Shown here piece after piece: positions 59,701 through 62,700 of a stretch of 64,000 nt of DNA (position 1 is its first letter; every line of letters starts with the position of its first letter). The DNA is from Escherichia coli (GTDB lineage Bacteria; Pseudomonadota; Gammaproteobacteria; Enterobacterales; Enterobacteriaceae). Location of the stretch: NCBI RefSeq assembly GCF_045037415.1, contig NZ_CP173438.1; one strand, written 5' to 3'. Position numbers: made by a program.

Positions 59701-62700
59701 CGAACTGTGCGCCTACTTTATCCCAGTCCGGACGACCATTAACGAAGTTATCTTCAATCACCCACTGACGGAACGGTTCGCAGGCAATGGCGCACGGGTC
59801 ATAAACACCCAGTTGGTCAGCAATTTCCTGTAAGGTTTCTGGCGTCGCCGCCGGAACGATGCGGTCAACCATGGTGCACGGGAAGGTGACGTTCTCTTCA
59901 ATCCATGCCGCCAGCTGCGGGTCACGCGCCTGAGCCAGCCCCAGTACCGCGACCTTCGCCACATGACCGTTTTCACGCACGTTATCGCAGGACATCACCG
60001 TAAACGCTTTCAGCCCTTTTTCACGACGCAGACGCAGGGCTTCGACGATGTAACCAATCGCGGACTTCGGCGCAGTCGGGTTTTCCAGATCGTGCTTGAT
60101 CAGCGGGTTATTGAGATCCAGTTGACCGCTTGCCGCATCAGCGCAGTAGCCTTTTTCCGTGACCGTCAGAGAGACAATCGCCGTTTGCGGACGCGCCATC
60201 GCGTTGAGAATACCTTCGCAGCCGTCGATTTCCGGGTGCAGCGCTTCTTTCATCGAACCGATAATTTTCAGCTCGGTGCTTTCCGCGCCTTTTTCCGCCA
60301 CGGTGTACAGCAGTTGCTGTTTTTTCAGGTTTTCGATCAGCACGCGGTCGTTGCCTGGCATCAGGTTAACTTCGCAGATACCCCAGTCGCTGTCGGTGCT
60401 TTCCAGCAGATGATGGGTGTACAGCGCCTGGTGCGCACGGTGAAACGCCCCGCAACCGAGATGCACAATGCGTGATTCCAGACGAGAATGATCCCATGAC
60501 GGGCGGGCAACCGGCAGATTGCTGTCAACAATAGTAGTCATCGTAAACTCCAGAATCCGTCTTCAGAGAGTGACGGCAAGGAAGAAGGAACCGGCACGGC
60601 GCGCAGCCATGCCGGTGGATATTAACGGCTAAAGAAAGCGCGCTGGATCGCCAGTTCGACACCGCGAACTTCGGCCAGGCCTTTCAGACGACCAATTGCG
60701 GAGTAACCTGGGTTGGTTTTCTTCTTCAGGTCGTCCAGCATCTGATGACCGTGGTCCGGACGCATCGGGATCAGGTCTTCTTTGCCTTCCGCTTTACGAC
60801 GGTGTTCTTCTTCAACAATCGCTTTCACCACTTCGTACATATCAACGTCACCGTTCAGGTGCGCCGCTTCGTGGAAGGTTTTCGGGTTATCTTCACGCAT
60901 GGTGGAGCGCAGATGGGTGAAGTAAATACGCGGACCGAACTGCTTGATCATATCAACCAGATCGTTGTCAGCACGCACGCCGTAGGAACCGGTGCACATG
61001 GTGAAACCGTTCGCCATGCTATTTACGGTATCAACCATCCACTGCATATCTTCAATGGTAGAAACAATGCGCGGCAGGCCGAGGATTGGGCGCGGCGGAT
61101 CGTCCGGGTGAACAGCCATACGCACGCCAACTTCTTCGGCAACCGGAATAATCGCCTTCAGGAAGACGGCAAAGTTTTCGCGCAGTTTGGCTTTGTCGAT
61201 ATCTTTGTACAGCTCCAGGTGCTTACGGAACTGGTCGAGGGTGTACCCTTCTTCCGCGCCCGGCAGACCGGCAATGATGTTACGGGTCAGACGCGCTTTG
61301 TCTTCGTCGCTCATAGTGGCGAAGCGTTCAGCTGCCTGAGCAATTTCTTCTTCGGTGTAATCCGCTTCCGCACCTGGGCGTTTCAGGATATGCATTTCGA
61401 ATGCAGCGAATTCGATCTGGTCGAAGCGCAGAGCTTTGGAGCCGTCTGGCAGCACGTATTCGAGGTCAGTACGGGTCCAGTCGAGCACCGGCATGAAGTT
61501 GTAGCACACGGTGCGAATACCGCACTGCGCCAGGTTGCGCAGAGTCTGCTGATAGTTAGCGATCCACTGCTCATAGTTGCCAGTGTGGGTTTTGATATCT
61601 TCGTGAATTGGCACGCTTTCTACGACAGACCACACCAGGCCTGCATCTTCAACGATAGCCTTGCGTTTGAGGATCTCTTCAACGGACCATACTTCGCCGT
61701 TCGGGATATGGTGCAGCGCGGTAACCACGCCAGTTGCGCCCGCCTGACGGACATCAGCTAAAGAAACCGGATCGTTTGGGCCGTACCAGCGCCAGGTCTG
61801 TTCCATGATTTTTCCTCTTTCACATAGTGGGTTCCACAGCAAAGAGACGCGGAACCCTGGAGTTGTTTAGGTATCCGGATGAACAACCAGACCGCAGCCG
61901 TGGCGTTGCATCGGATGAGATGGCGTATAAGTTCTACCTTTTGGTAATACATGTCAACCCGAATTCTAAAATTGGTTAACCACATCACAAGAATTTCACT
62001 CTCCTGGTTGTTGCTGCAAATTGCAGCAAAGGGTAATCGATGGTTATTGATCAGAGGATGTGACATTCATCGCAACAATGGTTGACCAATTTACATAACA
62101 TGTCGCCCAAAATAACAACGGTTCAACCAGGTAAGGTAAAACGTTATGCATGTGCTTAACATTCTCTGGGTGGTATTCGGCATTGGTCTGATGCTGGTAC
62201 TGAATTTGAAGTTCAAAATCAATTCAATGGTGGCTTTGTTGGTGGCGGCGCTGTCCGTCGGGATGCTGGCGGGCATGGATTTGATGTCGCTGCTGCACAC
62301 CATGAAAGCGGGCTTCGGCAACACGCTGGGGGAACTGGCTATCATCGTGGTGTTCGGTGCGGTCATCGGTAAATTGATGGTCGACTCCGGCGCGGCTCAC
62401 CAGATAGCACATACGCTGCTGGCGCGTCTCGGTCTGCGCTATGTACAGCTGTCGGTGATTATCATCGGCCTGATTTTTGGTCTGGCGATGTTCTATGAAG
62501 TGGCCTTTATCATGTTAGCGCCGCTGGTTATTGTCATTGCCGCCGAAGCTAAAATTCCGTTCCTGAAACTGGCGATCCCGGCAGTAGCAGCTGCCACTAC
62601 CGCACATTCACTGTTCCCACCGCAGCCGGGTCCTGTGGCGCTGGTGAATGCTTATGGCGCAGATATGGGGATGGTTTATATCTATGGCGTACTGGTGACG

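Follow-up and report, generated by a model that had tools for sequence, protein, structure and literature searches.

The genes uxuAB and gntP serve the catabolism of fructuronate and glucuronate, which matters for gut colonisation, and the spacer between uxuA and gntP is a textbook case of a regulatory region. According to published descriptions, UxuR has a single target, which is this spacer. In the window analysed here, a 64-kb stretch of Escherichia coli DNA, an initial annotation found operator-like dyads and a CRP-like site in the spacer, and these constitute its already known part. Between them lies a perfect 19-bp palindrome that the same annotation could assign to no known regulator, and for which it proposed either a second operator type or an RNA structure in a 5' UTR. 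What is this palindrome, and does it contribute to the control of the two genes?

Organization of the uxuA/gntP spacer

The two genes are transcribed divergently, and the spacer between them, 339 bp long, contains the following elements.

60622-61806, minus strand: uxuA (mannonate dehydratase), from the ORF list, translation and the RefSeq annotation of identical DNA
62146-63489, plus strand: gntP (fructuronate/gluconate permease), from the ORF list and RefSeq annotation
61807-62145: uxuA(-)/gntP(+) divergent spacer
61807-61921, minus strand: inferred uxuA 5' leader of ~115 nt, its start deduced from the conserved -35 and -10
61929-61957, minus strand: inferred uxuA core promoter, with -35 TTGACA (61957-61952), a 17-bp spacer and a weak -10 GAACTT (61934-61929)
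62096-62101, plus strand: inferred gntP -10 hexamer TAACAT
61969-61986, no strand assigned: UxuR/ExuR-type operator on the uxuA side, AAATTGGTTAACCACATC, with core TGGTTAACCA at 61973-61982 (centre 61977.5), from dyad and conservation
62075-62092, no strand assigned: UxuR/ExuR-type operator on the gntP side, ACAATGGTTGACCAATTT, with AATGGTTGACCAATT at 62077-62091 (core centre 62083.5)
62059-62074, no strand assigned: CRP site TGTGACATTCATCGCA, of the form TGTGA-N6-TCGCA (centre 62066.5)
61989-61974, minus strand: weak CRP-like TGTGA-N6-TAACC, overlapping the uxuA-side operator
62011-62029, no strand assigned: perfect 9-1-9 palindrome TTGCTGCAA-A-TTGCAGCAA (centre 62020), from sequence reading and a repeat finder

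Reading of the sequence and the repeat finder placed every motif exactly where the initial annotation had put it. That annotation delimited the regulatory region as 61843-62145; the spacer begins at 61807, and the left boundary given falls within the uxuA 5' leader. For comparison between genera we used an alignment of 16 sequences from four genus-level groups, namely Escherichia, Citrobacter, Klebsiella spallanzanii and one MAG. The CATGTCAACC and ATAA/TTC columns of the uxuA promoter are invariant in 16/16 sequences, as are the TAA.AT columns of the gntP -10. From these elements uxuA transcription would start near 61921, and gntP transcription at ~62108, the latter deduced from the conserved -10 and its geometry relative to the CRP site. 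Within the uxuA leader, a block of ~80 nt (61820-61900) is missing from most Citrobacter in the alignment; two hairpins are predicted in it (-39.4 kcal/mol, z -2.2).

A full-text literature search for the uxuA/gntP gene pair returned only CRP, UxuR, and RpoH SELEX and ChIP papers. By coordinate conversion, the SELEX peak of the RpoH holoenzyme adjoins the gntP start codon, ~115 bp from the palindrome, and we judge it to be unrelated to the palindrome.

Conserved operators and CRP sites

Both operator dyads are of the TGGT-N2-ACCA / TTGGT-N2-ACCAA type, centred between bases, and overlap the promoters; the gntP-side operator lies between the CRP site and the gntP -10. Their cores are invariant in all 16 sequences (GGTT.ACCAAT columns on the gntP side), and on a neighbour-joining tree of Escherichia they accumulate just 0.11 (uxuA side) and 0.13 (gntP side) parsimony steps per site. 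A search of the window with AAATTGGTTAACCAATTT, allowing up to 3 mismatches, returned just these two dyads, against 0.05 matches expected. The dyad type of the uxuA-side operator also occurs upstream of K-12 uidR, as ATTGGTTAACCAAT, and dyads of the UxuR type TTGGT-N2-ACCAA are likewise found upstream of K-12 uidA. In UxuR genomic SELEX the single peak falls in the gntP/uxuA spacer, resolved no more finely than the spacer itself (PMC5934670). Together, the cross-genus invariance and this peak uphold the earlier assignment, and by form and conservation in sequence the two dyads are UxuR/ExuR-type operators.

The operators are 104-106 bp apart in Escherichia and Citrobacter, about 10 helical turns, and 159 and 219 bp apart in two sequences with insertions. 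None of these spacings deviates from a multiple of 10.5 by more than 1.5 bp, so that the phasing is preserved even in the relatives with insertions.

The CRP assignment holds as well. The site at 62059-62074 matches the CRP dyad, its TGTGA and TC.CA are invariant in the 16 aligned sequences, and it is the reverse complement of TGCGATGAATGTCACA, the site called for gntP/uxuA by CRP ChIP-seq in ETEC (PMC4287617). CRP genomic SELEX also recovers the gntP-uxuAB spacer (PMC3105977). Relative to the deduced gntP start, it would be a class II site at ~-41.5. The centres of this site and of the weak CRP-like site are 85 bp apart.

Position of the palindrome

The palindrome, TTGCTGCAAATTGCAGCAA, has 9-nt arms that are 100% complementary with 1 nt between them. 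In K-12 (U00096.3) it occupies 4,551,413-4,551,431, within the spacer at 4,551,297-4,551,635. The two CRP sites flank it, their centres 38.5 and 46.5 bp away. The distances from its centre to the operator centres, 42.5 and 63.5 bp, correspond to ~4 and ~6 helical turns, which places it on the same face of the helix as both operators. From the palindrome it is ~88 bp to the deduced start of gntP and ~99 bp to that of uxuA. It is thus upstream of both deduced promoters and outside both predicted transcripts.

This position bears on the proposal of an RNA structure in a 5' UTR. As RNA, the palindrome would form a hairpin of 8 bp with a 3-nt loop, and it would have to belong to a transcript crossing the spacer, such as an extended leader of gntP or uxuA or an RNA absent from the annotation. 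Either strand does fold, at about -10.5 kcal/mol, and in a 31-nt context the z-scores are -2.5 for the plus and -4.6 for the minus strand; in a 61-nt plus-strand context, however, the fold is not unusual (z = -0.72). The placement upstream of both inferred promoters (starts near 61921 for uxuA and 62108 for gntP) argues against such a transcript, and Rfam gave no match even at E values up to 10. In addition, the natural variants described below all break pairs, with 0 compensatory changes. Position, uncompensated variants and the Rfam result together speak against the 5' UTR proposal, and we regard an RNA hairpin as very improbable indeed. An intrinsic terminator was rejected: no terminator-like site is found in 61700-62250, and after the stem the plus strand continues with AAGGGUA and the minus strand with CAACAAC, neither of which is a U-tract.

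How surprising is such a palindrome? The 64-kb window contains 6 perfect palindromes whose arms measure 9 nt or more and whose loops measure 0-4 nt, against 1.55 in dinucleotide shuffles, and the 9-1-9 class alone has 2 members against 0.31 expected. An expectation of 0.31 per 64 kb implies dozens of 9-1-9 palindromes per genome by chance, and a single one in 64 kb is therefore unremarkable by itself. These expectations favour the alternative that the palindrome is functionless. It would then have arisen, by chance or by a template-switch "correction" of an imperfect palindrome, in the one stretch of the spacer free to vary by drift, and its conservation would reflect shared ancestry and window boundaries chosen post hoc.

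Conservation and variation of the palindrome

In the 16-sequence alignment, conservation between genera breaks down in just one part of the spacer, and the palindrome is located there, which is a point for the absence of function. No Citrobacter or Klebsiella sequence examined contains it, although operators, CRP site and spacing are all retained there. Since the layout is otherwise the same there, the palindrome is dispensable for basic regulation.

Within Escherichia the picture is different. K-12, O157:H7 and four other E. coli genomes all have the palindrome unbroken, with the nearby mismatches confined to the flanks. It is also unbroken in Escherichia lineages whose gntP is only ~92-94% identical to that of the window. 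This retention across up to ~8% divergence in gntP argues against absence of function. Among 58 Escherichia haplotypes, 5/19 palindrome sites are variable versus 37/50 in the adjoining spacer (Fisher p = 6e-4), in a test framed after the data were seen and on haplotypes that are mutually related. Parsimony on the neighbour-joining tree gives 0.32 steps per site for the palindrome, close to the CRP site (0.31), versus 1.76 in the hypervariable left flank and 0.93 in the right, a substitution rate 3-5x below either side. When a 19-bp window is slid across the spacer, the local minimum of steps falls at 62011-62016, coinciding with the palindrome. Similarly, E. albertii differs from the window at 1/19 palindrome sites versus ~15/50 flank sites (~30%).

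Other counts speak for a functionless sequence. The proportion of variable sites in the palindrome, 26%, is about average for the spacer (32% overall), which puts it near the 52nd percentile of 19-bp windows. The palindrome is broken in three Escherichia lineages: TTGCTGCAAATTGCAACAA in E. albertii, TTGTTGCAAATTACAGCAA in E69-like strains and TTGATGCAAATTACAGCAA in a third lineage. These variants affect arm positions 4, 13 and 16. They are asymmetric and uncompensated, producing C-A and A-G mismatches and leaving 7 or 8 of the 9 arm pairs; the altered arm position changes from lineage to lineage, as would result from a quasi-palindrome under drift. On sequence comparison, then, the palindrome is a real feature, confined to Escherichia and moderately conserved there. 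Taking both sides together, we consider lack of function a serious possibility, somewhat below an even chance.

Searches for a cognate regulator

The palindrome resembles none of the sites already present in the spacer. A UxuR/ExuR operator was rejected, as the palindrome has no GGT/ACC core, is centred on a base and is missed by the operator pattern searches. A CRP site was rejected too: TGCTG-N6-GCAGC has just TG in common with the TGTGA half-site. The operator of UidR (GusR) was an attractive idea, uidRABC being largely an E. coli trait, but the K-12 uidA/uidR upstream regions contain nothing like TGCAA-N-TTGCA, and the idea was dropped for want of support. What those regions do contain is UxuR-type dyads and a CTGTGT-GCA-ACACAG dyad.

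Some resemblance to the consensus patterns of known global proteins was found, and the palindrome might be a weak site for CytR, Fis or an NtrC-type activator. The CytR operator consensus consists of two octamers of the GTTGCATT type, separated by 2 bp or more and placed between CRP sites ~53 bp apart. The core TGCAA-A-TTGCA has the CytR pentamer in inverted orientation between two CRP sites, but the octamers match at only 5/8 positions each and share 1 bp, and a distance of 85 bp separates the CRP sites. The genes uxuA and gntP are not known to belong to the CytR regulon. Fis sites combine G at -7 and C at +7 with a purine at -3, a pyrimidine at +3 and an A/T-rich centre. The central 15-mer GCTGCAAATTGCAGC of the palindrome agrees at the two outer positions and in the A/T-rich centre, but its -3 position is C and its +3 position is G. 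A 17-mer matches 13/17 positions of the NtrC dyad TGCACCA-N3-TGGTGCA, but a sigma-54 promoter-like sequence (TGGCAC-N5-TTGCW) does not occur in 61807-62145 within 2 mismatches, and a site for a sigma-54 activator was rejected. Moreover, CytR, Fis and NtrC-type proteins are all present in Citrobacter, where the palindrome is absent. We therefore regard a weak site for any of them as highly unlikely. With the UxuR/ExuR, CRP, CytR and Fis patterns giving no fit, the initial annotation was right that no known regulator can be assigned.

 In 1.39 Mb of related loci, a search for further copies of the palindrome allowing up to 4 mismatches gave nothing beyond scattered low-similarity matches, and no copy is present in the K-12 uidA/uidR regions. 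A scan of IMG/VR gave 12 matches in unrelated, partly coding contexts, roughly the chance level if the collection is assumed to be ~60 Gb. Full-text literature searches with the complete palindrome, its arm and its core brought up nothing but unrelated matches, to primers or eukaryotic sequences. The failure to find a known motif, a second copy or a literature mention is a further point for the functionless alternative.

One partial match was found in the regulon itself. The 10-mer TGCAAATTGC is common to the palindrome and the K-12 uxaC/exuT spacer, and is the only sequence of the palindrome shared there. The uxaC/exuT copy appears as TGCAAATTAC in both E. albertii and Citrobacter; in Enterobacter it has a deletion of 2 bp, and Cedecea lacks it. 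The probability of such a match by chance in the ~1.2 kb examined is about 0.02-0.05, which makes it a lead rather than evidence.

Discussion

Weighing these observations, we tentatively favour, at just under an even chance, a reading in which a dimeric DNA-binding protein binds the palindrome; the site would be peculiar to Escherichia, a later addition to a conserved older module of two UxuR/ExuR operators and CRP sites. Lack of function is almost as probable. The earlier suggestion of a second operator type survives: it is favoured by the reduced substitution within Escherichia and weakened by the absence of the palindrome from sister genera with the same regulatory layout. A putative protein at the palindrome may tune one or both of the divergent CRP-dependent promoters from their shared upstream region, by bending the DNA or by contacting proteins on the flanking sites. 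For example, the bound protein might help or hinder a putative repression loop between the two in-phase operators.

A more specific alternative, which we consider unlikely, is that the palindrome is the operator of a regulator that Escherichia has and that Citrobacter lacks or leaves unused here. This would link uxuAB/gntP to a signal other than hexuronates or cAMP, and the conserved core TGCAAATTRC could be the recognition element. If so, TGCAAATTRC, also found in the uxaC/exuT spacer, would add a further, small layer to the hexuronate regulon.

If the palindrome is a real protein site, as we tentatively prefer, the control of glucuronate and fructuronate utilization would have an extra Escherichia-specific input that is missing from current regulatory maps. 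If it is not, a perfect and partly conserved 19-bp palindrome can occupy a promoter region without function. Either outcome is of local interest and has no bearing on a wider open question.

Like the quasi-palindromes at template-switch hotspots, the palindrome has versions with 7 or 8 of 9 pairs beside the perfect one, in related lineages, and a hypervariable left flank; no outgroup carries a version that would tell whether change ran from imperfect to perfect or the reverse. Like deoP2-type CytR operators between tandem CRP sites, it has inverted TGCAA/TTGCA pentamers between CRP sites, but it departs from them in its overlapping half-sites, its poor octamers and the wider spacing of its CRP sites. 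The ~4- and ~6-turn phasing to the main operators resembles that of auxiliary in-phase loop operators such as lac O2/O3 and gal OE/OI; however, palindrome and main operators are unrelated in sequence, and the coincidence in phasing carries little statistical weight. The palindrome also differs from the hexuronate-regulon UxuR/ExuR operators (GntR family, FadR subfamily) in lacking the GT...AC core, in its base-centred symmetry and in not being conserved outside Escherichia. Of the other elements of the spacer, the two operator dyads have the form TTGGT-N2-ACCAA seen upstream of K-12 uidR/uidA, and the CRP site at 62059-62074 is like those of other divergent sugar-acid promoters.

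Control elements of the uxuA/gntP spacer

The minus-strand uxuA starts at 61806 and the plus-strand gntP at 62146, and the divergent spacer is therefore 61807-62145, or 339 bp. RefSeq annotation of this spacer in K-12 and strain SK1144 contains no further feature. Of 5,426 complete E. coli genomes, 5,404 matched a 601-bp query across the region (90-100% identity), with uxuA and gntP annotated. Sequence reading and a repeat search confirmed the motifs that the initial annotation had placed here, including the perfect palindrome, at the following coordinates.

Features of the uxuA/gntP region
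60622-61806, minus strand: uxuA (ORF and RefSeq annotation)
61973-61982: uxuA-side operator-like dyad TGGTTAACCA
62011-62029: perfect 9-1-9 palindrome TTGCTGCAA-A-TTGCAGCAA
62059-62074: CRP-type site TGTGACATTCATCGCA
62077-62091: gntP-side operator-like dyad AATGGTTGACCAATT
62146-63489, plus strand: gntP (ORF and RefSeq annotation)

Among the gntP-relative loci, fetched as one genome per species, only those of Escherichia, Citrobacter, Klebsiella spallanzanii, and one MAG have uxuA as the divergent neighbor of gntP. Alignment of 16 spacers from these taxa gives a clean footprint. Its invariant blocks are CATGTCAACC, corresponding to the minus-strand uxuA -35 TTGACA; the core of the uxuA-side dyad, with GGT/ACC invariant and the adjoining bases nearly so; TGTGA...TC.CA; GGTT.ACCAAT; and TAA.AT, the gntP -10 TAACAT (62096-62101). 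The two dyads are the sole matches to AAATTGGTTAACCAATTT in the window at up to three mismatches (0.05 expected), and the K-12 uidR and uidA upstream regions carry the same dyad. Genomic SELEX of UxuR found one peak, located in this spacer (PMC5934670). Together with the invariance across genera, these matches bear out the proposed assignment of the dyads to UxuR/ExuR. The CRP-like site also holds, being conserved as TGTGA...TC.CA and identical to the ETEC CRP ChIP-seq site for gntP/uxuA, TGCGATGAATGTCACA (PMC4287617), the reverse complement of 62059-62074; CRP SELEX lists gntP-uxuAB among the spacers with several CRP sites (PMC3105977). The operators and the CRP site are correctly identified and already known.

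Judging from the conserved elements, the gntP promoter would be of the class II CRP type, with the CRP site centered at 62066.5, a start at ~62108, and the operator centered at about -24.5. For uxuA, the promoter would combine a -35 at 61957-61952 with a weak -10 GAACTT and a start at ~61921, its operator and a weak CRP-like TGTGA-N6-TAACC being centered at about -57 to -60. The distance between the operator centers (61977.5 and 62083.5) is 106 bp for Escherichia and 104-105 bp for most Citrobacter; in two relatives that carry insertions it is 159 and 219 bp. In this small sample (loci L005-L013, including L006 and L012), no spacing deviates by more than 1.5 bp from a multiple of 10.5 bp, the pattern that cooperation of the operators by DNA looping would predict.

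Promoter spacers usually drift freely. CTTTTGGTAATACATGTCAACC (61936-61959), which covers the uxuA -35 and a large part of the promoter spacer, hardly varies from genus to genus; its TTGGTAATAC stretch resembles half a UxuR/ExuR site, and the region may be a further operator. Between uxuB and uxuR, a UxuR-type box CTGGTCAACCAA (59025-59036) fits uxuR autoregulation. A uxuA leader block of ~80 nt (61820-61900, minus strand) is present in Escherichia, partly in L006 and L012, and cleanly absent from most Citrobacter in the spacer alignment. Folding of the ~115-nt leader (-39.4 kcal/mol, z -2.2) predicts two hairpins, AUCCGAUGCAAC...GUUCAUCCGGAU and GGGUUCCGCG...GUGGAACCC, that directly precede the ribosome-binding site.

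An Escherichia-restricted palindrome

The palindrome occupies the one stretch of the spacer alignment that is not conserved from genus to genus. At this position the sequence of Citrobacter and Klebsiella is unrelated, although both retain the operators, CRP site, and spacing. The palindrome is a genuine orphan dyad that is confined to Escherichia. Its perfection alone is not significant, because dinucleotide shuffles give 0.31 perfect 9-1-9 palindromes per 64 kb.

Within E. coli, the exact 49-mer around the palindrome occurs in 1,391 genomes, and another 3,989 differ by 1-2 bases. In six genomes fetched from the latter set (K-12, O157:H7, M6, OkiPb01700, N96, and S21EC), the 19 bp are intact and all differences lie in the flanks. 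Scanning metagenomes with the conserved promoter and operator of uxuA as the anchor yielded 120 loci, which with the genome loci give 58 Escherichia haplotypes. Imperfect alleles occur in two singletons and three lineages, namely E. albertii (TTGCTGCAAATTGCAACAA), E69-like strains (TTGTTGCAAATTACAGCAA), and a third lineage (L164 and L188; TTGATGCAAATTACAGCAA), and none of these three lineages has a compensating change on the opposite arm. The perfect form is kept in lineages whose gntP is only ~92-94% identical to that of the window. Across the haplotypes, variable sites make up 5 of 19 positions in the palindrome and 37 of 50 in the spacer sequence next to it (Fisher p = 6e-4), compared with 1-2 of 15-18 in the operators and 32% in the entire spacer. 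The sliding-window minimum of substitution in the spacer is at 62011-62016.

Parsimony steps per site, counted on a neighbor-joining tree
Palindrome: 0.32
CRP site (gntP): 0.31
Operators: 0.11-0.13
Left flank, 61990-62010: 1.76
Right flank, 62030-62058: 0.93

These sequence comparisons point to some constraint on the palindrome, in a test framed after seeing the data and on non-independent haplotypes. The 21 bp directly to its left (61990-62010) are hypervariable across the Escherichia haplotypes, with several multi-state sites and the spacer maximum of steps; recombination or palindrome-promoted mutation is a possible cause.

Other perfect palindromes occur in the window. GAGCCTGCCATTGGCAGGCTC (63500-63520) begins 11 bp past the gntP stop codon and is probably the gntP terminator stem. 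ATATGTGATATGAATCACATAT (29044-29065) contains the consensus CRP core TGTGA-N6-TCACA and lies in the divergent intergenic region between ORFs 27234..28898 (minus) and 29260..31425 (plus). Two more have 9-nt arms, AGCCAGTCCGCTGGACTGGCT (8268-8288) and CATTTAATTATAAATTAAATG (17328-17348).

Discussion

Relative to the inferred starts, the palindrome center (62020) is at about -88 for gntP and -99 for uxuA, which places it upstream of the two core promoters, with a CRP site on either side. An RNA structure in a 5' UTR, as the initial annotation had suggested, is very unlikely. Either strand could form an 8-bp hairpin with a 3-nt loop (~-10.5 kcal/mol), but the palindrome lies outside both inferred transcripts, natural variants break pairs, no U-tract or terminator-like site follows, and no Rfam match appears at E up to 10. 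We tentatively favor a putative binding site for a dimeric protein, which, from its upstream position, would modulate the two divergent promoters; the geometry would be compatible with such a protein acting alongside a possible operator-operator loop. That the palindrome is non-functional is nearly as likely. As a regulatory region the spacer is well known; its new element is unproven, and sister genera do without it.

The palindrome could conceivably be a weak site for some known global protein, but this fits poorly and is improbable. As a UxuR/ExuR operator, the palindrome lacks the GT...AC core and is centered on a base, not between bases. Its only match to the CRP half-site TGTGA is TG, and the spacer has no sigma-54 promoter for a sigma-54 activator site. 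Against the CytR and Fis consensus patterns, spacing or key positions fail. For a UidR operator there is no support, since nothing similar occurs in the control regions of K-12 uidA and uidR. The fetched loci, 1.39 Mb in all, contain no second copy of the palindrome; viral contigs have 12 copies in unrelated contexts, by our estimate about the chance number.

The remaining lead comes from uxaC/exuT, the other divergent hexuronate control region. In K-12, its spacer contains TGCAAATTGC (L211, the fetched uxaC/exuT region, 5029-5038; NC_000913.3 3245028-3245037), a 10-mer identical to the palindrome core, with a chance of ~0.02-0.05 for such a match in the inspected sequence. Comparison of uxaC/exuT spacers shows the 10-mer disrupted in Enterobacter, by a 2-bp deletion, and in Cedecea. 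In E. albertii and Citrobacter it reads TGCAAATTAC, the same G/A difference as in the E69-type palindrome allele.
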